Shown: positions 3,283 through 48,003 of the stretch, one piece after another | Numbering within the stretch: position 1 is the stretch's first letter | Layout: every line of letters starts with the position of its first letter | Position numbers and translations under genes: made by a program | Virus record (IMG/VR): IMGVR_UViG_3300011989_000009 | Coordinates: 28,786-92,785 of that record | Source: a virus | Taxonomy: Duplodnaviria > Caudoviricetes | Length of the DNA: 64,000 nt | Direction: 5' to 3' (one strand) | The notes under the pieces: model-generated | The model's database searches: none | The model's input: the letters and a program-made list of their open reading frames with translations, nothing else | Told to the model about the DNA's origin: nothing

Positions 3283-6200
3283 TACTGCGTTATGCTCACG
3301 CGGGCCTGGGCACGACCCGCATTGTAGCGGAGGGCAGAGCTGACAGCGCTGTGGCAATTCAACGAACGCGGGGCACAATTGCCGTGGGTGGCACTGAGGC
3401 CGAAACGCAAAGCGAGCCTTGTTCTCTGGCCGACACCCGTGGTGTTGTACCAGTTATCGTTCCAGATATACATGCTGTCACCTTTCGATGAGCCAGTGGA
3501 ACTATCAACCGCAAACGGAGAGTAAGGGAAGCGGTTCTTACGCCATCCGTTGCTCACGGTCACGATGCCTGCACTGTCACCGTCAATAAGCTTGATGTAG
3601 CTGTCCTCAAAGCCAAATTTGGTGCTTGTGTTCGCTACGGTTACGGTTGTAATCTTCTTCCACTTGCTTTGGTCTGGTTGCAGCCAAAAGTTGATAGTGT
3701 TGCCGTATTGATTGACGTCTTGTTTGGCAAGAATGGTAGCCACTAATTCGGCACCTCCACCGCAATAGCGGAAGACATCGCCTGACAACTCAGCTCCGGC
3801 AAAGAGACTCATGCGCAAACGGAACTCACAGGTCATAGCACCCTCGGTGGCATCAGTGTAGCTGTAAGAGGTAATCTTATACACACGGACGTTCATGTAG
3901 CCCTTGCTCAGACCGTCCACACCATTCACGTCCATGTAATAGTATTTGTTGCCGTACATGTAGAACGTGTGCTCTTTGCCGCTCTCTGTGGTGGCAGCAA
4001 TGCCAAGCTCTACGGCCATGGATGCGGCCAACTGCGCTTCCATGCACGCTGCCTTCGGAGCATAACCGTTTACGAAGTTTGACCAATAAGTTGTAGCGGA
4101 CACACCGTCCACGTTGAACGCATGGGTCGCACCCCATGAGGCATAGGTATAGTCAGTAGCGGATGACTTCTTAAACTTTACACCACCCACCTTGAAGAAG
4201 TTGGAGGCGCTTGGGCCATCGTTGGATGAGATGCCACTGCCATAGCGGTCAACATCAACGAGGTTCTGCGAGCTCATGGTGAGCTCAACGAAACTGATGA
4301 AGGCATCCAGCGTAAAGTAACCACCCTCGGCCATCGGCACGGGTGAGTCGGCATCTTTATTGTTGGCCCGGCAATAGGTCATGCTGGTAATCTGACTGAC
4401 ATCCATACACCGAGGATAGGCGCGGCCTTCCTTGTACGGCGTGATAGAGGGAAGATTGGCACCCTGCCAATCGGCTACCGTCGCGCCGCAACTACCCTGC
4501 GAGTTGGCGTCGTCGGAGGCAAAGAGGTAGAAGAAGTCGCGGGCCTTGCCGCCGATGGTAGTGAAGGCACCGGGTGAGAGTACCGTCGTGGGCAGAGCGT
4601 ACTTGGTAAGGTCGATGCCGTCCCACTCGGTAACGTCTGTAAAGATACCCTTCCACTTCTTGCCTGAGTCACCCTTCACATTGTCGAGGAAATAAACCGT
4701 ACCATCAAGATAACCCACGCCGATACTGTACTTTGTCTCGGTTGTCTCCCATGGGCGCAACTTATGGCTGACGGCTGAGATGAAGCCGTCTGAGGCTTTC
4801 TTATATAGCGTGCGAGGCTTGCTGCCTGTCTTCATAAGAGGCTTGTCGTAGGTCTCCCACTCCGTGATGGCGTTGTACTTTCCCTGAGCATAGGCAACAG
4901 TCTTAGCCGCAGAGTCGGAATAAAGGATATTGTCGGTACATTCCTTCTTCATATCCTCGGTTATGCCCACCACGGGAGCGTAGCTGCCATCGGCGTAGCG
5001 GAGAATGTTATTGCGCATGAGCTTGGCGGCCGGGTACTCGGTGCGGGCGTTGCCGTCTGCATCGGTGTTGTCGGTGACATCGAAGAGGGCGAAGTCGAGG
5101 TTTTTCAAGAATGCCTTGTTGCCATGATGACCTATTGCGTCGCAATTGTCGCCAAAAAAATCGTATTCGTCGCAGTAGTTGTCACCCCAGAGGTCAGGAT
5201 AATTGGGCTCATAATCTACTACCAATTTAGGCAGCTTGTCGGCTGACGTAGCGCCAAGCTCCTTGAGGTTGGTGACGAGCGTCTCGCCGGTCTTGGTGTC
5301 AGCTTCGGAACCAATCTTCACGTAGTTGCCATCCTTATCCTCCATGTACCACTTGATAGTGTATAGTACGTCGCAGAGGTTGCGGGTGTCGCCTTCCGTC
5401 GCTTTCAGCGGATTCGTGGCCAGGTTGAGCACTACGCCGCCGCTCTCGATGAAGAACCGGCGGATGACGGGCACCTTGGACAGGTCGGAGGCATTGAAGT
5501 CCTTTTGCTGGATCATGTCGTTGGCCACGGTGACAAAGCGCTTGCCGGTGATAGGTGGCAGGGCCACGCCGAGTTTGAAGGATGTCTCCAAGAAGCCGAG
5601 GGTCTTGCTGGGTAGGATCTGACCGGCTGCATCGGCATAATCGACTAATTCGCCGTAGGGGATAAAGCCTGCCTTGCAGATGAGCTCTACGTTACGCATC
5701 TTGGCCATGTTGACCACGCACTCCTTGTTCCACGTACCGTCAGCGTACTTCGTGCCAGTGAACCAGTCGTTGTTATCAGTGATGCGGGTCAACTGATTCT
5801 GACGATTTTTATAGTACCAGAAATAGAAGGCGTTGCCCGTGCGCTTTGTGCCCGTGTAGGCGTCGGCCACGGTGAGATTGCCGTCATATTCCTGGCAGCG
5901 GCAATGCACCATCCAGTTCGTGCCTTTGGAGTTGAGCGGGCGGAGGATGGGGTTGAGGATGAAGTTCTCGCTGCCGTAAGGTGCGTCGGCCGCGCCTTTT
6001 TCAATACGCAGCTCCAGACGGGTGACGGTGTTGATGTTCGTGGTGAGCTTCACGTTGTCGATGGTGGTGACCGACGTACCCTTCACGGGGTCGGTGAAGG
6101 TGATCACGGCGAAGATGCGGGCGCCGGTCTGCGTGTCGGGGAGGTTGCCCTTATAGGTAAGCTCATGGGCTGTGCCGTCAACAGTGAAGGCATTGCCCAT

Positions 6201-6491
6201 GTCGGCTATCTTCACCATCTTGCTGATGTCGTCCGATGAACCTTTCTTGGCATAATACCAAGCCACGCTGGTCACTGTGCCAACTGACCGTTGCGAGCCG
6301 TCGGCCTTGTTAGGGTCGTTGATGACCACGTGAGTGCCAAGTACGAGGGCATTGGACGTGGCGGTGCGGTCGGGCGAATACTCACCGGTGGCGTTGTGGT
6401 ATATCTGTGACAGGGAGCCGCTCTTGACGTAGAGCTGAGCCGAATAGTTAATCGGCTTGGAGACAGCCCCTAATTGTAATTTCTCTATCAT
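3282..6491 (-). CDS. DGR target: tail fibre / receptor-binding protein with C-terminal C-type-lectin-like variable domain
   Basis: 1069 aa, beta-rich, VR in the last ~45 codons, located in the tail module. Confidence 0.9.
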   Translation of the reverse strand: MIEKLQLGAVSKPINYSAQLYVKSGSLSQIYHNATGEYSPDRTATSNALVLGTHVVINDPNKADGSQRSVGTVTSVAWYYAKKGSSDDISKMVKIADMGNAFTVDGTAHELTYKGNLPDTQTGARIFAVITFTDPVKGTSVTTIDNVKLTTNINTVTRLELRIEKGAADAPYGSENFILNPILRPLNSKGTNWMVHCRCQEYDGNLTVADAYTGTKRTGNAFYFWYYKNRQNQLTRITDNNDWFTGTKYADGTWNKECVVNMAKMRNVELICKAGFIPYGELVDYADAAGQILPSKTLGFLETSFKLGVALPPITGKRFVTVANDMIQQKDFNASDLSKVPVIRRFFIESGGVVLNLATNPLKATEGDTRNLCDVLYTIKWYMEDKDGNYVKIGSEADTKTGETLVTNLKELGATSADKLPKLVVDYEPNYPDLWGDNYCDEYDFFGDNCDAIGHHGNKAFLKNLDFALFDVTDNTDADGNARTEYPAAKLMRNNILRYADGSYAPVVGITEDMKKECTDNILYSDSAAKTVAYAQGKYNAITEWETYDKPLMKTGSKPRTLYKKASDGFISAVSHKLRPWETTETKYSIGVGYLDGTVYFLDNVKGDSGKKWKGIFTDVTEWDGIDLTKYALPTTVLSPGAFTTIGGKARDFFYLFASDDANSQGSCGATVADWQGANLPSITPYKEGRAYPRCMDVSQITSMTYCRANNKDADSPVPMAEGGYFTLDAFISFVELTMSSQNLVDVDRYGSGISSNDGPSASNFFKVGGVKFKKSSATDYTYASWGATHAFNVDGVSATTYWSNFVNGYAPKAACMEAQLAASMAVELGIAATTESGKEHTFYMYGNKYYYMDVNGVDGLSKGYMNVRVYKITSYSYTDATEGAMTCEFRLRMSLFAGAELSGDVFRYCGGGAELVATILAKQDVNQYGNTINFWLQPDQSKWKKITTVTVANTSTKFGFEDSYIKLIDGDSAGIVTVSNGWRKNRFPYSPFAVDSSTGSSKGDSMYIWNDNWYNTTGVGQRTRLALRFGLSATHGNCAPRSLNCHSAVSSALRYNAGRAQARVSITQ
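3306..3420 (-). repeat. DGR variable repeat (VR) at the 3' end of the 1069-aa target
   Basis: Matches TR except at adenines; encodes RLALRFGLSATHGNCAPRSLNCHSAVSSALRYNAGRAQ. Confidence 0.97.
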
Positions 6492-6509
6492 GATTATTCA
6501 CTTTAATGG

Positions 6510-7649
6510 TTATGAATTGGCGGGTTCGGCTGATAAGTACCAGTTGACGGAGCCTCCGGCGGCAATGATGCCTGCATAGGTATATTTCCACGCTGCGCCA
6601 GAAACAGAACCGTTCTCGATTGTTGGGTCAAAGGTCGTACCATCAGCCTTTTTCAATACCCATGTGAAGTCGTATTTAGTGCCAGTGACCTCCGTGCCAT
6701 CACTCTTTACTACATGCGCCGTTCGGGTGACGGTTTCGCCTGCCTGAATCTTTTGGTCGATATGCGTGCCGCTGCCGGATGCGAACGTACTGATCTCGGT
6801 AACCTCGATGTGGTAGGGGTCGGAATAGTCCTTCACGCGGTAGTAGCCGCGATAGGTCTTGCCGCCGATGGTGGCGATACAGACAAACAGGCCATCACCA
6901 TTCACCATGTCGGCTGAAACGGTGAGCTTGGATGTCGTTGCGCTCGAAATGTTGCTCTCGGTACCTGCGCTTGCGTCAGCCCACTGAAGCGAAGCATCAC
7001 TGGTGACCTCGGTGGTGGCTCCATACTTATACACCTTTGCTACAAGCTCGGCTGCGTTACCCTCGCTGTCGATGTCGCCCTTGCCTGCCTCACTGCTGAT
7101 ACGGACTACATAGGTGTTGCCGCCATTGACAGTCTGCACACACTGGACGGTTTCAGTATTGGAACGCACGTCCTGCGTGTTGGCGCCTTCGAGGGTGACC
7201 TGGCCGGTGACGTAGAAATCGTCGGAGTCGGCATTGGCGGAGCCAAAGACATCCTTGATAATCTCGAAGACTGGCACGTTCTGATAGGTGTTGCCATCGC
7301 TGTACTTCACGCTGGCCAGTAAGCGGCGGATGGTTCCTGCTGGCAGGATGTTCGTATTGAGATTGTTGCTGTCGAAGGTCATAAGGGCTGAGTTGCCGCT
7401 GCCGCCGTTCCAGTAAAGGTTGACGTTGGCCAGACTGTCGCTGCCAAGCACGTAGCTCTTGCCCTCGGAGTCGGTGACCTCAGCATAGAACTTAGGGCCG
7501 GCATTCTTCCATGACGGACTGACGGTTGACGTTGAGTTGTCCCAGAACTGGAAGAAGTCAACGTCGTTGATACGGCGGATTTTACAGGTAAGTGACTTAC
7601 CATTGATGACGGCATTGATGGTACCGCTGTTGGATATAATTTTCTTCAT
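6510..7649 (-). CDS. Virion/tail protein with Ig-like domains
   Basis: 379 aa, Thr/Ser-rich beta strands, Ig-like pattern LQW...LTV...FVC; tail module context. Confidence 0.65.
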   Translation of the reverse strand: MKKIISNSGTINAVINGKSLTCKIRRINDVDFFQFWDNSTSTVSPSWKNAGPKFYAEVTDSEGKSYVLGSDSLANVNLYWNGGSGNSALMTFDSNNLNTNILPAGTIRRLLASVKYSDGNTYQNVPVFEIIKDVFGSANADSDDFYVTGQVTLEGANTQDVRSNTETVQCVQTVNGGNTYVVRISSEAGKGDIDSEGNAAELVAKVYKYGATTEVTSDASLQWADASAGTESNISSATTSKLTVSADMVNGDGLFVCIATIGGKTYRGYYRVKDYSDPYHIEVTEISTFASGSGTHIDQKIQAGETVTRTAHVVKSDGTEVTGTKYDFTWVLKKADGTTFDPTIENGSVSGAAWKYTYAGIIAAGGSVNWYLSAEPANS

Positions 7650-33085: not shown

Positions 33086-34420
33086 TCAGAGGGCTCTTTC
33101 TATCACGAGAGAGGCATTGGTGCCACCGAAGCCAAAGTTGTTGAGCAACGCTGTTGTTATCTTTGCCGACTGAGGGGTGTGGGGTATGTTAAGATGACGA
33201 GCGGCGGGGATGGGATTCTCTAAGTTGATGTTTGGTGAGACGAACTCGCCCCTCATCTGCATGATGGTATAGACGACTTGTGAGACGCCAGACATCCAAC
33301 ACTCGTGACCCGTCAGACACTTCGTGGCAACGACGTAAGGGCGTGCATATACTTCTTTTTCCGTATGCTTGCTGCCAATAAAGGTATCACACATACATGT
33401 GATTGCTTTTGCCTCGGCTTCGTCACCCTCAACAGTGCCAGTGGCATGTGCCATCACCATATCAATATCAGAGAAGAGCATATCAGCGTCATTACAGGCT
33501 GCGCACATCGTATGAACATAGCTGGCGTCATCAGGCTTGATGATAGAGTCGGATGTGGAATAACCATACCCGGAAACAACGGCGAGGGCAGGAATAGCCT
33601 CGGCAATCTTCGGGCGGTAGGTGTACAAAGCCATACGGTCGTGAAGAAACATCGGTGGCGAACAACGCTCCATGACGATGGCAGCAGCACCGCCGGAGGG
33701 CACAAGACCATCGTGCTTCTCGTCGAAGGGACGGGAGGCATGGACAGGATCATCAGACTGAGAGAAGATACCCAGTGAGTCGAAAGCCCACGAGCTGACG
33801 ACATCATCTTCCTGGGCACCGACGACGATGCAGCGGTTCACTGCCCCACTCTCGATGAGCGTCTTGGCCAGTCCTACAGCATGACCGCCACCGGCACAGG
33901 CGGCAGAGACGGAAAGCGTAAGGCCACGGATATGAAAGAACTGCGATAGGGTCATACTCACGTTGCTGTTGAGCGTCTTGAAAACGCTGTAACCGCCTAA
34001 AGCCCGCGTGTCGTTGACCTCACTCATAATATCACCGATCTGCACGGTCTCTGCGATGGCACTGTCTGACGACACGATAAGGGCGGAACTGGACAAATCT
34101 ACGTCCGTGAGTTTTGCTTGCTCCACAGCCTCGCCAACGGCCATTGCTGCCCATATTGCCTGCTCGGTCATAGCCTTACGGACGGCTTGGGAAACGTGAT
34201 ACTTCTTTATCAGTTCCTTCCATCTCGCTGCGTCTTCCGAGGTTCTGTTAGCAACAACGCCCATCAGACTGCTCTGATAGCCGTTTGCCTCACGCAAATC
34301 TGAACGGGAGAGACCGCTCTGACCATTCGCGAGATGCTGAGCTACCTTGTTCAAGCCGATACCAATACACGAACAGATACCCATGCCCGTGATCCCTGCT
34401 ATTCTTTTGTCTTGTCGCAT
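33086..34420 (-). CDS. Beta-ketoacyl-ACP synthase (FabB/FabF-like)
   Basis: ITGMGI, catalytic Cys SAACAGG, SRPFD, His AHATGT, K..TGH, NFGFGGTN. Confidence 0.93.
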   Translation of the reverse strand: MRQDKRIAGITGMGICSCIGIGLNKVAQHLANGQSGLSRSDLREANGYQSSLMGVVANRTSEDAARWKELIKKYHVSQAVRKAMTEQAIWAAMAVGEAVEQAKLTDVDLSSSALIVSSDSAIAETVQIGDIMSEVNDTRALGGYSVFKTLNSNVSMTLSQFFHIRGLTLSVSAACAGGGHAVGLAKTLIESGAVNRCIVVGAQEDDVVSSWAFDSLGIFSQSDDPVHASRPFDEKHDGLVPSGGAAAIVMERCSPPMFLHDRMALYTYRPKIAEAIPALAVVSGYGYSTSDSIIKPDDASYVHTMCAACNDADMLFSDIDMVMAHATGTVEGDEAEAKAITCMCDTFIGSKHTEKEVYARPYVVATKCLTGHECWMSGVSQVVYTIMQMRGEFVSPNINLENPIPAARHLNIPHTPQSAKITTALLNNFGFGGTNASLVIERAL

Positions 34421-34677
34421 ATACTTGGTTTTAAAGTTAATAACACGTCGGCAATATCGCCGACCGTCTTAATGTTTCCCAGTTGCTCTCTCGACACCTT
34501 TACTTTGAAGTGCGTCTCGACAACCAACACAATATCGATTTTGGCGAGAGAGTCAAAACCTAATTCCTCCAAGGTGGTGCTTTCTGTATGTTCCACCTTC
34601 TCTTCCGGCGCAAACTCCGGCTCCAGCCGTTGCAGAATGAGCTGGAAAAGATCATCTATCAATTCTGGACGTGTCAT
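34399..34677 (-). CDS. Acyl carrier protein
   Basis: LGFDSLAKID motif; ATG at 34677 overlaps the stop of module 12 (ATGA). Confidence 0.88.
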   Translation of the reverse strand: MTRPELIDDLFQLILQRLEPEFAPEEKVEHTESTTLEELGFDSLAKIDIVLVVETHFKVKVSREQLGNIKTVGDIADVLLTLKPSICDKTKE

Positions 34678-34817
34678 AATGTATATTCTATTAAAATACA
34701 ATGTGGGCACTTGAAGTCAGTACTCCGAAGCGAGGGAGAGATTGTTTTCCACCCCCCCCCAGATGATTGCCACTCAAAAGAATGACTGACTATGTTCACA
34801 CCCACTTTAAAGTTCAT
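34674..34817 (-). CDS. TRD-like module 12 (G9, in frame)
   Basis: MNFKVGVNIVSHSFEWQSSGGGWKTISPSLRSTDFKCPHCILIEYTL*; C9 at 34752-34760. Confidence 0.75.
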   Translation of the reverse strand: MNFKVGVNIVSHSFEWQSSGGGWKTISPSLRSTDFKCPHCILIEYTL

Positions 34818-34986
34818 ACTCTATAATGATTTTACCTACATGCGCAATCGTCAATGTTGCCATTGGATTACGCACGTTTATTAACTGCATCTCGCTTACC
34901 CCCCCCTGACGCTCATCACCCGTAAAAAAGCGAATATTGCCATTCGGAAGCCAATGAGCGAAGATGCCACATTTCCTTGCTTTCAT
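34807..34986 (-). CDS. TRD-like module 11 (G8, in frame)
   Basis: MKARKCGIFAHWLPNGNIRFFTGDERQGGVSEMQLINVRNPMATLTIAHVGKIIIEYEL*; C8 at 34899-34906. Confidence 0.75.
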   Translation of the reverse strand: MKARKCGIFAHWLPNGNIRFFTGDERQGGVSEMQLINVRNPMATLTIAHVGKIIIEYEL

Positions 34987-35124
34987 AATTCGTACTCTAT
35001 AAAAAGCATTGCATTTTTCTGACTGCTTGTAAGCGCATTCGAGAACGACACACTGCCAAGTTCAAGTTGCTGATACGTTTTACCACCCCCCCCTACCACG
35101 CAAAGCGCAACACATATATATCAT
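34983..35124 (-). pseudogene. TRD-like module 10 (G8, out of frame; G7/G10 restores)
   Basis: MIYMCCALRGRGG then TGG TAA; the restored frame gives ...GKTYQQLELGSVSFSNALTSSQKNAMLFIEYEL*; C8 at 35086-35093. Confidence 0.75.
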
Positions 35125-35274
35125 AGTTCATAATTTATTAATATTTTAGGTTTGTCAATATCATGGCCTTGCCCCCCCAATTACGGCAGGAGATATACCA
35201 AAACGAGAGACAACTATACCATTCTGAGAATGCGAATAATAGCCTAACTTTATCACATTTGATCTACACCTCAT
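35121..35274 (-). pseudogene. TRD-like module 9 (G7, out of frame; G6/G9 restores)
   Basis: MRCRSNVIKLGYYSHSQNGIVVSRFGISPAVIGG / QGHDIDKPKILINYEL*; C7 at 35172-35178. Confidence 0.75.
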
Positions 35275-35443
35275 ACTCAATCAATAATAAATTATCCATC
35301 AACGCAGCAGTGACTGTATGAGCATAGTCGAAAGACAAAAAAATATGTTCCGAACGCTTTCTCCGTACTCCACCATCTCCTAACATTTTTCGTTGTTGCT
35401 TATCATGCTCAGAGCGCCCTAAAGTCAAAAACTTATAGTTCAT
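35264..35443 (-). CDS. TRD-like module 8 (no G tract; T7, in frame)
   Basis: MNYKFLTLGRSEHDKQQRKMLGDGGVRRKRSEHIFLSFDYAHTVTAALMDNLLLIEYEV*; similar to module 6. Confidence 0.75.
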   Translation of the reverse strand: MNYKFLTLGRSEHDKQQRKMLGDGGVRRKRSEHIFLSFDYAHTVTAALMDNLLLIEYEV

Positions 35444-35446
35444 ATT

Positions 35447-35644
35447 CTACATAATATATTCCATTAATACAACCGTCTTCGGGAAATGTGCCAACGTGAC
35501 AATATCAGTAATCTCTGAGAGTCCGTCATACCGCGTGTTCAACGTACACGATACTCCACCGTTTGCAACATTCACGGGGATAGAATACCCCCCCCTAATA
35601 GGTTTTCCATCGGCACTGGTAGTGTAAGCTAAATCATAAGTCAT
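35447..35644 (-). CDS. TRD-like module 7 (G8, in frame)
   Basis: MTYDLAYTT...IRGGYSIPVNVANGGVSCTLNTRY...LAHFPKTVVLMEYIM*; C8 at 35588-35595; paralogue of module 1. Confidence 0.8.
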   Translation of the reverse strand: MTYDLAYTTSADGKPIRGGYSIPVNVANGGVSCTLNTRYDGLSEITDIVTLAHFPKTVVLMEYIM

Positions 35645-35816
35645 ATTCAATCAATAACAGATTGTCTTTCTGAACGCTATCAATAGTATTAGCGATCATA
35701 CCCCCCCCTACGTAAACGTGCATGTTAAAATGCACTTTACCGGAATTGTCACCCCACAAGCGACGGATATGTTTGGCTAATGCACTGCGACAAGGTCTTA
35801 ATATCGACTGGTTCAT
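35634..35816 (-). CDS. TRD-like module 6 (G8, in frame)
   Basis: ...YVGGGMIANTIDSVQKDNLLLIEYDL*; C8 at 35701-35708. Confidence 0.8.
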   Translation of the reverse strand: MNQSILRPCRSALAKHIRRLWGDNSGKVHFNMHVYVGGGMIANTIDSVQKDNLLLIEYDL

Positions 35817-37217
35817 TTCGTAAGAGCTTATTTACTTCAAAGATAATACGAGGTTTCTCTACCGTCTGATTATACTGATACAGCTCAGCGATAGCCTTAT
35901 CATCATTTACCTTCATCAGTTTTTCAAGATCAGACTTTGCATAAGCGTGCGTTTTTATCAGCTCGGCCATCTCGTCAGGAACAACACGATATTCAGCCTT
36001 CTCTTTCTGATTACGCGACAAAAATGCTATCACGCTTTCTGGTTTTAAGAAGTAAGTGTCAGCGACATTCTCCTGCAAAATATCGGCGATACACTTCTCC
36101 AATTTGAAAGGTTTAGGAAACTGATACTGTTCCTTGCACACATCGTCACGCACCGACACCATGAAAACTCTCGCACGATTTTTGGGTACACCATAATTTT
36201 TTGCATTGAGAATCTGATAATAGCTATGATAACCACAAGCCTTGACGGTATTATACCACTCCACAAAGTCCGGCCAATTCGTCGAGTCAATCAAAGCTGC
36301 CACATTCTCCTGCAATAAAAAATTTGGCTTTAATGCACGGATAGCGTTTTCGGTGCTCCAAAGAACAGCAGAGCGAGTACCACTTCCTTTCTTGATTCCT
36401 GCGCGCTTCCCCGCAACAGAGATTGATTGACAAGGTGTAGAATAAGTCAGCAAATCAACACCTTCTCCGACATCAATCTTGCTCCAGTCCGCCGTTGTCA
36501 TATCACCTACGTTTCTATCTGCCCATTGAGGGAAGTTCAAATTGTGAGCTTTTACGGCAGGCTGATTTTCGAGCTTTGCTTTGCTCTCTGGATCAAACTC
36601 AGCCCAAGCCTTCAACTCATAATCGAATTTTTTACCTTGCAAAGACGCAAAATTGTGCAGCATCTCCATAGCAATCATCTGAGAATCATAGCCGGAACAC
36701 AGCGTCACCACGTTGATTTTCTTTGGTAATGGCACATCCCAACGTGAGCCGTAATCAAAAATAGAAAATTGTGAACCCGTTGTCGGCTCATACATCCAAA
36801 TATTCTTATAGATGTAAAACAGCACATCGCAGACGATACTGTTCCCTGCAAGTTTATAGCAGGCTGATTTACTGAGAGTGCTCGGATTATCCGTCATTCT
36901 GGCAATATAGTTATCCGGCACGCCCATCAAACGAAAACACTCTACGGGCGTGAGCTTACGAATATCAAACAAACGCGGGTCGGCGTTAGGGATGAATTTT
37001 GCTATCATAGTTCTTTGTAAATCTTTATCAAAACACGAGTCTAAAATTGGTACGGAAACGAAATAATGATTGCTGGAGGAAATACGAGTTGTCAATGTGC
37101 CATATATCTCGTCACTGACAATACCGTTATAGGCGTCTACCCAGAGATAGGGCTTATCTATTACCCCCCCCTAATCATGCGATTGATACGACTTGAATAA
37201 GTTCTGTTATAAGGCAT
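35749..37217 (-). CDS. Circularly permuted C5-cytosine DNA methyltransferase with N-terminal TRD-like module 5; G8 tract currently out of frame
   Basis: Motif order IX (RKLTPVECFRLMG), X (YKLAGNSI), I (TLCSGYDSQ), IV (STPCQ), VI (QENV), VIII (PKNRARVF). ATG 37217 reads MPYNRTYSSRINRMIRGG-TAA at C8 37164-37171; G9 or G6 joins it to the 35749-37095 ORF. Confidence 0.88.
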
Positions 37218-37371
37218 ACTCTACTAAAATGTTAGGAACAAATCCACCCCCCCCCGCATAGTTAAACACGGTGGCAGCAATGCCGTTTGCAAAATAGATT
37301 CTGTCTCGTTGGGCATTATTCCTATGATGTTCTTTGATATGCCCTATTTGAATGATTCTGTCATATTTCAT
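37207..37371 (-). CDS. TRD-like module 4 (G9, in frame)
   Basis: MKYDRIIQIGHIKEHHRNNAQRDRIYFANGIAATVFNYAGGGGFVPNILVEYAL*; C9 at 37247-37255. Confidence 0.8.
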   Translation of the reverse strand: MKYDRIIQIGHIKEHHRNNAQRDRIYFANGIAATVFNYAGGGGFVPNILVEYAL

Positions 37372-37534
37372 AAACGACCATTATTCCTGTCTCATTAAAT
37401 CCGTCATTTCTTTTTAAAACGAAGTTGGCTCCACAAGCCTTGTAATATACGGACCGCAAAGACATTGCCGTGCCGTCAGTACTTACGCTTATCGGAAGTT
37501 CATGCCCCCCCCGTATGAGGTGCTTATAATTCAT
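37361..37534 (-). CDS. TRD-like module 3 (G8, in frame)
   Basis: MNYKHLIRGGHELPISVSTDGTAMSLRSVYYKACGANFVLKRNDGFNETGIMVVYEI*; C8 at 37505-37512. Confidence 0.75.
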   Translation of the reverse strand: MNYKHLIRGGHELPISVSTDGTAMSLRSVYYKACGANFVLKRNDGFNETGIMVVYEI

Positions 37535-37680
37535 ATTCTATTCTTACATGTGGCGTTGTTACTCCTTTATACCCTCCCCCCACAGAAAGACGTTATCGTA
37601 TTGCAAATATCCTTAAAATGGTACTTGCTTACGCTTCCGTCTTTGCTATGGCGAGTCCAGCCTACAAACTTATAAATCAT
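37524..37680 (-). pseudogene. TRD-like module 2 (G6, out of frame; G5/G8 restores)
   Basis: MIYKFVGWTRHSKDGSVSKYHFKDICNTITSFCG / GGYKGVTTPHVRIEYEL*; C6 at 37576-37581. Confidence 0.75.
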
Positions 37681-37861
37681 ATTCAAACAACACAACCGTC
37701 ATAGGATAATGGGCAAGCGTTATAATATTGTTACAACCGATTGCCTCATATCTTGTATTGAGTGTGCAGGCAAGCCCACCGTTGGCGGTATTAACGGGTT
37801 GATGATACCCCCCCCTAACAGACTTGCCCGGACACGTTGTGGTTAAAGACAGTTTCAACAT
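37670..37861 (-). CDS. TRD-like module 1 (G8, in frame)
   Basis: ...VRGGYHQPVNTANGGLACTLNTRY...LAHYPMTVVLFEYDL*; C8 at 37808-37815. Confidence 0.8.
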   Translation of the reverse strand: MLKLSLTTTCPGKSVRGGYHQPVNTANGGLACTLNTRYEAIGCNNIITLAHYPMTVVLFEYDL

Positions 37862-46909: not shown

Positions 46910-47233
46910 ATGGGTCAAAAAAGAAAAAATACCGACGAGGACGAAGAGAAAAAGGGTCCGTCCCTTGAAGATTTCGTCGTCCACGAAAAAATCAAGGCGT
47001 TCATCGACGCTTACATGCCGACGGACACGGAACGCATGGCTTCTGAGGTCTTCGACGATGCACGCCTACGTACCTTCTTCAAAGCCTATCCCTGCTCGTT
47101 AGGTGATCCGCTGACCATCATCTTGTCTTACCTCACTGCTGCCGGATTCCAGATGCGCGTCTCCGACAACGGCGAACCCGCCATTTTTGTCATCAACAAA
47201 GAGAGCGGACTACATCTACTGGAAAGCGTATGA
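46910..47233 (+). CDS. Hypothetical protein
   Basis: 107 aa; TAATTTTG promoter element at 46881. Confidence 0.7.
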   Translation: MGQKRKNTDEDEEKKGPSLEDFVVHEKIKAFIDAYMPTDTERMASEVFDDARLRTFFKAYPCSLGDPLTIILSYLTAAGFQMRVSDNGEPAIFVINKESGLHLLESV

Positions 47234-48003
47234 AAGATTTATTTGATATGGATCCCGTTGCGCAATATGATAAAAGCGTACACGCAAAAAACGGCAGAGC
47301 GAGAGTCTTCAAGACGCTTGGAGCCAGCAATCACACCGAACAAGACAGAGGAGCTTTCGATTATTATGCTACGGAACCAAAAGCTACGGAACTGTTATTG
47401 AAATTAGAACATTTCAACAATAACATTCTTGAACCATGCTGTGGAGAAGGGCATATTAGTGAAGTACTGAAACGGGGGAGACTGTCCGAGAACTCCCGAA
47501 GAGGTGTCAAACTGTCATCAGAACATAGTTCTTTGAAGAAGTGTGCACCTTGCGTTAAATCGAACGTTTTACGATCAACAATTAAGCCGCAATCTAGTTC
47601 TCGGACGGCCTGGGGGGGGTATCACGTTACATCACGTGACCTTATCAATCACGGATATGGTGAACAAGCTGACTTTCTTGATATGGCCAACACAGAATGG
47701 AACGGAGATATTATCACCAATCCACCTTATGCACTGGCTAAAGAGTTTGTTGAAAAAGCGATAAGAATCATACCACGAGGGAACAAAGTAGCTATGTTTC
47801 TCAAACTCACATTCCTTGAAGGAAAGCAAAGACGTGAACTTTTCCGGATTTTTCCTCCTATCCGTGTATGGGTGTCTTCCTCCCGTCTTGCGTGCGCCAT
47901 GAATGGAGACTTTGAAAAATACTCCGGTTCTGCTACCGCCTACGCATGGTTCATTTGGCAAAAGGGATTTAAAGGCGACCCAATTATAAAATGGTTTAAT
48001 TAA
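47230..48003 (+). CDS. Amino (N6A/N4C) DNA methyltransferase with in-frame 46-codon insertion and G8 tract
   Basis: DYYATE, motif I ILEPCCGEG, motif IV IITNPPY, LKLTFLEG. Confidence 0.88.
   Translation: MKDLFDMDPVAQYDKSVHAKNGRARVFKTLGASNHTEQDRGAFDYYATEPKATELLLKLEHFNNNILEPCCGEGHISEVLKRGRLSENSRRGVKLSSEHSSLKKCAPCVKSNVLRSTIKPQSSSRTAWGGYHVTSRDLINHGYGEQADFLDMANTEWNGDIITNPPYALAKEFVEKAIRIIPRGNKVAMFLKLTFLEGKQRRELFRIFPPIRVWVSSSRLACAMNGDFEKYSGSATAYAWFIWQKGFKGDPIIKWFN
47479..47611. mobile_element. 133-bp MITE-like insertion
   Basis: Ends AGACTGTCCGAGAACT and AGTTCTCGGACGGCCT (14/16 inverted match), flanked by GGGGG on both sides (5-bp target duplication). Confidence 0.75.

Follow-up and report, generated by a model that had tools for sequence, protein, structure and literature searches.

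A phase-variable guanine tract ahead of the target reader of a circularly permuted phage C5 cytosine methyltransferase

C5 cytosine DNA methyltransferases (C5-MTases) are viewed as single polypeptides whose reader is fixed, and phase-variable methylation is known from cellular adenine methyltransferases. The phage locus described here raises the question of what is switched when a slippage-prone G tract precedes the TRD, the reader, of a C5-MTase: the entire enzyme, or only the reader attached to it. The locus lies in a part of a 92,785-bp IMG/VR virus record with a completeness estimate of 95%, and the whole 64,000-nt stretch that was analyzed is referred to below as the window. An earlier, sequence-only reading of the window had claimed a methyltransferase that is permuted at the TRD position, accompanied by free TRD modules and switched by a G tract that is now OFF, and had left two branches for the tract, either a master on/off switch or, through an internal start, a choice between making the core with its built-in TRD and making it without.

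At 37217-35749 (- strand), the window encodes a C5 cytosine DNA methyltransferase with a Type H circular permutation. Its stop-to-stop frame (37170-35752, - strand) encodes 473 aa and was matched by the Pfam profile PF00145 in two stretches (E 4.6e-48). When compared with the M.HhaI sequence (E 2e-26), the aligned pieces were found in swapped order, with HhaI 271-318 (motifs IX-X) corresponding to residues 70-124 of the 473-aa frame and HhaI 49-198 corresponding to residues 209-367. Motifs I, IV, VI, IX, and X were all found, and motif VIII reads KNRAR here versus QNRAR. The two-piece alignment and the motif coordinates (table 1) bear out the motif order that had been claimed, module 5-IX-X-I-IV-VI-VIII, as TRD-IX-X-I-IV-VI-VIII; the chain is also opened in the variable region, as proposed, with a T-L-bearing TRD located N-terminal of motif IX, which is a known type of permutation (cf. 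M.BssHII). The AlphaFold (AF2) model of an in-frame relative, P0001, showed a mean pLDDT of 83 and matched M.MpeI, M.HhaI, and M.HaeIII, with Foldseek E values of about 1e-14 for M.MpeI and M.HhaI; pLDDT was about 70-77 in the TRD and below 50 in the linker (residues 49-68). The first 54 frame residues showed the GTLTTR signature and, at moderate AF2 confidence, a beta-rich fold, and were assigned as the TRD because of their position in the chain. The cellular records with the closest homologues are Prevotellaceae, Muribaculaceae, and other Bacteroidales bins, among them a 90-kb contig from the Prevotella sp. MGM1 isolate; thus, the phage host is probably a gut member of the Bacteroidales, perhaps Prevotella.

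Table 1. Positions of the features of the methyltransferase locus in the window; the poly-C sites in the last row are positions in related loci.
Feature	Position	Strand	Detail
Upstream free TRD mini-genes	37207..37861	-	
M1	37861-37670	-	G8, in frame
M2	about 37680-37524	-	G6AG3, out of frame
M3	37534-37361	-	G8, in frame
M4	37371-37207	-	G9, in frame
Leader mini-ORF of the fused module	37161..37217	-	ATG 37217-37215, 18 codons, TAA 37163-37161
G8 homopolymer (switch)	37171-37164	-	G9 ON in this lineage; G7, G8, G10 OFF
Built-in TRD (module 5)	37009..37170	-	open frame; strand YFVSV, then weakly conserved linker
T-L motif GTLTTR of module 5	37101-37084	-	
Catalytic core	35749..37008	-	internal ATG (MIAKF) to TGA 35751-35749
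Motif IX	36960-36916	-	
Motif X (GNSV/I)	36846-36832	-	
Motif I (SAM loop)	36702-36682	-	
Motif IV (PCQ, catalytic Cys)	36438-36418	-	
Motif VI (ENV)	36312-36301	-	
Motif VIII (PKNRAR)	36186-36169	-	
Lys codon AAA in motif VIII	36181..36183	-	CAA or CAG (Gln) in relatives
Strand AEYRVV, then helical C-terminal extension	35997-35980	-	after motif VIII
Downstream free TRD mini-genes	34674..35816	-	
M6	35816-35634	-	G8, in frame
M7	35644-35447	-	G8, in frame
M8	35443-35264	-	no tract
M9	35274-35121	-	G7, out of frame
M10	35124-34983	-	G8, out of frame
M11	34986-34807	-	G8, in frame
M12	34817-34674	-	G9, in frame
Motif IX poly-C sites	L011:5250, L012:5212, L013:5107, L017:5215, L018:4048, L016:193		

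The sequence immediately upstream of the TRD is organized as had been described, with a coupled start and a TAA directly after G8. The leader ATG sits within the E-Y-A-L tail of the upstream module M4, with an overlap of 11 nt, and the leader peptide reads MPYNRTYSSRINRMIRGG up to the stop that immediately follows the tract; the G8 allele of this genome is OFF for the fusion of the leader to the TRD and core. In both OFF frames, a stop occurs within three codons of the tract. The read-through product predicted for G9 exists in nature as a 489-aa protein (P0001, 99% identical, as well as L083, L155, L156, and L165-168), and the N-terminus of P0001 is exactly the same leader. G6, which had been named alongside G9, restores the frame by arithmetic only, as no G6 allele was found at this tract. 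The leader is conserved as a protein, MxYNxSRLNxMIxGG, in homologues with about 50% core identity: in L011, L012, L014, L017, and L018 (cores ~50% identical), MNYNNSRLNAMI[RQM]GG precedes a G7-G8 tract in the corresponding position, and the peptide is also kept in homologues that have no tract (P0029, P0027, P0041, and L009). Far from being unconserved, the region upstream of the tract is thus retained in distant and tract-less homologues alike, which indicates that the leader is not junk.

The tract itself varies among closely related phages. We aligned 15 related contigs from at least four projects, all of them consensus assemblies, to positions 38000-34600, and the methylase tract was G7, G8, G9, or G10; all four lengths are represented among the contigs that are 96.7-100% identical to the window. 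In particular, L163 (SRR948137) is identical to the window and carries G8 (OFF), L164 (SRR948132) is 100% identical over 2257 nt and carries G7 (OFF), and L155 and L156 (SRR948129 and a JGI assembly), with 2 substitutions over 3396 nt, carry G9 (ON) and also differ in the length of five other tracts. Within a 96.7% lineage from one project, L159-162 have G10 (OFF) and L165-168 have G9 (ON), and within an 86% lineage, L157 has G8, which is ON given its own sequence context, and L158 has G7 (OFF). The ten other tracts of the locus vary in length likewise. Outside the tracts, no internal indel was found in the comparison with L083 and none in L160-162 and L168, the contigs that lie wholly inside the compared span; indels in the longer contigs were left unscored because their overhanging ends swamped the count. 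The whole 92,785-bp genome has 12 plus-strand runs of at least seven C, and ten of them are packed into 3.06 kb (34752-37815; binomial P 9.6e-14), one per TRD mini-gene. The only plus-strand run of at least seven G in the genome is found elsewhere, at 47612-47619, inside a 298-aa ORF (47107-48000). Furthermore, four clusters of close relatives each mix full-length members with members that start downstream (489 vs 419, 487 vs 418, 486 vs 411, and 493 vs 413 aa). The fraction of contigs in the ON state is about one third to one half, a value that unselected drift in length would also give. Taken together, these results firmly support the methylase tract as a slipped-strand contingency locus that undergoes real phase variation, and the claim of a switch that is now OFF stood up on three counts, namely the G7-G10 alleles of near-identical phages, the predicted 489-aa ON protein, and the leader kept in tract-less homologues. 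The OFF alleles could be leaky if slippage on the G run occurs during transcription or translation.

Two explanations would deprive the OFF allele of its meaning as a switch state. Errors are frequent in homopolymers and the window comes from a metagenome assembly, so the true tract might be G9 and the OFF alleles miscalls; however, G8 was reproduced in a separate run (L163, SRR948137), G7, G9, and G10 were obtained from other runs and other assemblers (ENA, JGI, and Logan), and the ten further tracts vary in the same way. Since the tract lengths vary and the scored comparisons revealed no indel outside the tracts, we attribute the variation to the phages themselves, and an assembly or sequencing artefact is extremely improbable. 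Alternatively, the frameshift and a change in motif VIII could be signs that this lineage is losing its methyltransferase. PKNRAR in motif VIII, already noticed by the sequence-only reading, was confirmed, and the Gln that it replaces is invariant in 75 homologues, including the nearest relative (alignment A2); one allele therefore holds two potentially disabling changes, and the Lys allele is limited to the window, L163, and L164. The Lys codon arose from a single C->A at 36183, which is one of just two substitutions relative to the 99.9% identical L155, so that PKNRAR, judged from these comparisons, is a recent single-base change, and the window allele with Lys may be catalytically impaired. 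Nevertheless, over the remainder of its length the gene matches ON alleles perfectly or with 2 substitutions, and the frameshift falls precisely in a tract that varies reversibly (G7-G10). Compared with the ON allele L083, the codon changes of the window number 17 synonymous and 6 non-synonymous in the core and 3 and 0, respectively, in the fused TRD, and the frame behind the tract is fully open in the OFF allele (473 aa), which indicates purifying selection across ON and OFF alleles, that is, constraint rather than decay. The recurrence of Lys and Pro at the same C4A4 junction in other phages (P0148 and P0145) also suggests a mutable site, and we consider the decay of the gene improbable. The motif VIII Gln codon (36181-36186) lies at this CCCCAAAA junction (C4A4), where Lys is found in the window, P0130, and P0148 and Pro in P0145; P0148 and P0145 belong to another 90% cluster, and the Lys of P0148 is independent of that of the window. 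On these comparisons, the junction could be either a mutable site or one of recurrent inactivation.

Whether the tract silences the enzyme or only its reader depends on where translation of the core can begin. Two internal starts had been suggested, TTG 37095 and the ATG of MIAKF. The former was abandoned: in the T-L motif of the TRD this TTG supplies the Leu, a position taken by I, V, or F in homologues, and initiation there would halve the TRD; it had simply been the first start-like codon given by the ORF lister. The Met of MIAKF (ATG 37008; Met55) is M in all 26 homologues with a fused N-terminal TRD, despite the variable linker before it, and 48 of the 49 homologues without a fused TRD start at this Met. 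Moreover, a stop is found 3-18 codons upstream of the core Met in seven viral loci (L003, L010, L013, L016, L019, L020, and L058), and in L003 a free module ends right before it. Homologues without a fused TRD form the majority of the family, and because the Met is invariant and most members start there, we proposed that the TRD-less core is the commonest product and that the fused form is a core to which a module has been joined. The 21 nt upstream of ATG 37008 contain 52% A, which corresponds to the 99.4th percentile of internal in-frame ATGs in the long ORFs of this phage and falls in the range of its real starts. Initiation regions of Bacteroidota are A-rich and poor in Shine-Dalgarno sequences, and the context of ATG 37008 fits this pattern. 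The low AF2 confidence of the linker (residues 49-68 of P0001) likewise speaks for a switch of the reader alone. A sigma-70 promoter/terminator scan, whose consensus does not cover Bacteroidales, the probable host, gave no recognizable promoter or Shine-Dalgarno support for this ATG. Conservation of the MIAKF Met could instead have structural reasons.

If the whole enzyme required the coupled start at 37217, the G8, G7, and G10 alleles would yield no methyltransferase and the free modules would be idle. The start is indeed translationally coupled to M4, ATG 37008 lies 153 nt past the OFF-frame stop and has no recognizable promoter or Shine-Dalgarno support, and a switch of the whole enzyme would be useful against methylation-dependent nucleases. 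However, most family members have no fused module and start at the same Met, ATG 37008 ranks in the top 1% of internal ATGs by the A content of its upstream context, and seven tract-bearing free modules are in frame in this OFF genome. In addition, relatives that appear to control the core itself use a separate tract: the L011-L018 subfamily carries an extra poly-C run inside motif IX (MGVPPP) of the core (table 1), in which C8 keeps the frame whereas C9 (L018) and C10 (L011) disrupt it. Going by its position, this run is a candidate whole-enzyme switch that is absent from the gene of the window, and since it is separate from the tract ahead of the TRD, we treat core-level and TRD-level switches as distinct devices. 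The master-switch branch of the earlier claim is thus the less favored one, and we judge it rather unlikely, whereas the branch in which a core with or without its TRD is made by way of the MIAKF ATG is favored by the invariant Met and the A-rich context. Accepting the latter, G8 most likely silences module 5 only, and the 419-aa core would still be made from ATG 37008.

The free modules that had been placed on both sides of the gene are present there. The TRD library comprises 12 modules, of which one, module 5, is fused; each of the remaining eleven is an ORF by itself, with a start and a stop. All modules share an MxY-like beginning, an end of the form hhh-E/N-Y-x-h-stop, and an overlap with the next start; as read from the translations, ten of the 12 contain a T-[LIV] motif, and the tracts of M1, M3, and M7 fall at [IV]RGG, where module 5 also has its own. 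In this genome, M1, M3, M4, M6, M7, M11, M12, and the tract-less M8 are in frame and M2, module 5, M9, and M10 are out of frame; in the 99.9% identical L155, the modules in frame are M3, module 5, M7, M10, and M11. The whole module repertoire differs between the two phages, yet they are separated by just two point mutations. The second of these substitutions, at 35265, affects the stop of M8 (35266-35264), which is TAG in the window and TGG in L155; TGG is found in most relatives and would add a roughly 42-aa out-of-register tail, so that this change may represent switching by point mutation in the sole module without a tract. With ATG 35816 as its start, M6 shares the final 68 nt of the methylase gene (35749-35816) in another frame; its true start could be either this ATG or the ATG just ahead of the M6 tract. 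Directly after the last module, at 33086-34716 of the window (- strand), are genes for an acyl carrier protein and a ketoacyl synthase; the PP-binding and ketoacyl-synt genes are kept in all related contigs and represent unusual phage cargo.

The relation of the free modules to the core was approached through their relatives. Modules of the M2 type stand alone in the window and in L003, whereas P0016 (71% identity, E 7e-14), L004-L008, and L025 carry this type joined to the core. Searches with M4 and M7 gave no match or chance matches among PDB sequences and no match among GenBank phages; M4 may resemble the HhaI TRD. A search of viral and JGI metagenome contigs for the exact pattern of tract and flanks gave 0 matches, and a scan of viral contigs for related proteins with a single protein found none. 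Recombination of the free modules, as silent cassettes, into the fused site was rejected as the main mechanism, as the modules each retain a start, a stop, and a Gly-coding tract in frame and a fused site is absent from most of the family. A reader supplied in trans to a TRD-less core is plausible and would be the simplest account, because TRD-less cores form the majority and are under selection. When a natural module-TAA-core read-through (L003, P0167) was folded, the module remained unplaced (pLDDT <50), an outcome that speaks neither for nor against docking. Artificial permutants of M.MpeI and M.SssI that were split into a large-domain piece and a TRD-containing piece were inactive (PMC5944983), and assembly in trans is therefore not to be assumed.

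On these grounds, we proposed that the tract acts as a switch of the reader, a reading to which we assign a probability of roughly 0.6: the tract would toggle one specificity, the core would still be made from ATG 37008, and the free modules would serve the OFF core. Replication slippage would alter the length of the G tract, and one length in three would join ATG 37217 to the TRD-core frame. With G8, the ribosome would halt at the TAA right past the tract and the covalent TRD would not be made, while the core would probably still be translated from its own conserved start. The ON state would thus be a core with a built-in reader, and the OFF state a TRD-less core that would need a reader from the free mini-genes, which, with the exception of M8, bear tracts themselves. 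The likely benefit would be bet-hedging of phage methylation against host restriction systems and methylation-dependent nucleases. More speculatively, the early OFF stops would keep the internal start clear of ribosomes, and read-through in the ON state would lower internal initiation. An extension of this reader switch to two tiers is possible, though we hold it to be doubtful. In the ON state, module 5 would hold the core by its advantage in cis and read-through would suppress the free core, giving mainly one methylation motif; in the OFF state, the core would be shared by the in-frame modules in a combinatorial, heritable, and reversible repertoire, and the Q/K/P changes at the C4A4 junction could provide a further, slower level of control on catalysis.

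Neither circular permutation nor homopolymer switching of methyltransferases is new. Type H permuted C5-MTases are known, including M.BssHII, M.Alw26I, M2.Eco31I, M.Esp3I, and M2.BsaI, with about 22 entries in REBASE, and the natural permuted C5-MTases are all opened in the variable region (PMC5944983); permutation alone is therefore not a novelty. Like these enzymes, the phage protein has IX-X before I-VIII, a TRD that opens the chain, and, when ON, a single polypeptide, a likeness of architecture. However, Type H enzymes belong to bacterial restriction-modification systems and have a fixed TRD, and neither phase variation nor free TRD genes have been reported for them (PMC5944983), whereas the phage gene has its TRD behind a G tract and a core with its own conserved start. 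Bacterial phasevarions (Type III mod and Type I hsd) similarly have a homopolymer in the 5' coding region, slipped-strand frame shifts, and ON and OFF alleles in near-clonal populations, but they involve adenine methyltransferases of cellular restriction-modification systems, in which the whole enzyme or the S subunit is switched (PMC12707154). The phage locus, in contrast, concerns a C5-MTase, has eleven tracts in one locus, and carries a methylase tract that probably switches the attached reader only.

Natural splitting of the chain is known from M.AquI (alpha and beta subunits), and fragment complementation from enzymes of the M.SssI and M.HaeIII type (PMC5944983, PMC3404938). The chain is likewise broken in the variable region in M.AquI, where activity arises by non-covalent assembly, which is putative here; the second piece of M.AquI comprises the TRD and IX-X, whereas in the phage IX-X is joined to the core and the free piece would be a module of 46-65 aa alone. 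Another likeness, a single phage core with several short TRDs, is shared with the SPR type, and the rho11s gene was a weak match of the core of the window. The multispecific C5-MTases of the Bacillus phages SPR, phi3T, rho11s, and H2 (Trautner laboratory) combine one core with several short exchangeable TRDs and protect against several restriction enzymes. In these enzymes, the TRDs stand in tandem in one polypeptide of canonical order that is always expressed; the window instead has one fused TRD and eleven separate ORFs around a permuted core, not a tandem array between VIII and IX. In the distant relatives L021, L022, L045, L046, L052, L056, L065, and L066 (about 5700-6800), an ORF with motifs I-VIII only is followed by several G8-G12 tracts on the same strand, and the layout looks like a non-permuted or multi-piece version of the same idea.

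In the literature searched, we found no description of a phage C5-MTase with a switched covalent reader, a retained second start, and surrounding switchable free readers. What this locus contributes is a module in its fused state, together with the question of whether one start is used or two: in a permuted C5-MTase, a virus has placed the reader under the control of a slippage switch, and a second start appears to allow the core to be made with or without the covalent reader. As a warning for annotation, gene calls of 419, 448, and 489 aa are states of one locus. If the proposed role of the free modules is true, the specificity of a C5-MTase would come from a separate subunit of ~50 aa, similar to the S subunit of Type I systems, and would offer a natural template for programmable cytosine methylation. 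A phage population could thereby vary which DNA sequences are protected, and gut phage populations would, if this is true, hold a large hidden epigenetic diversity that is flattened by consensus assemblies.
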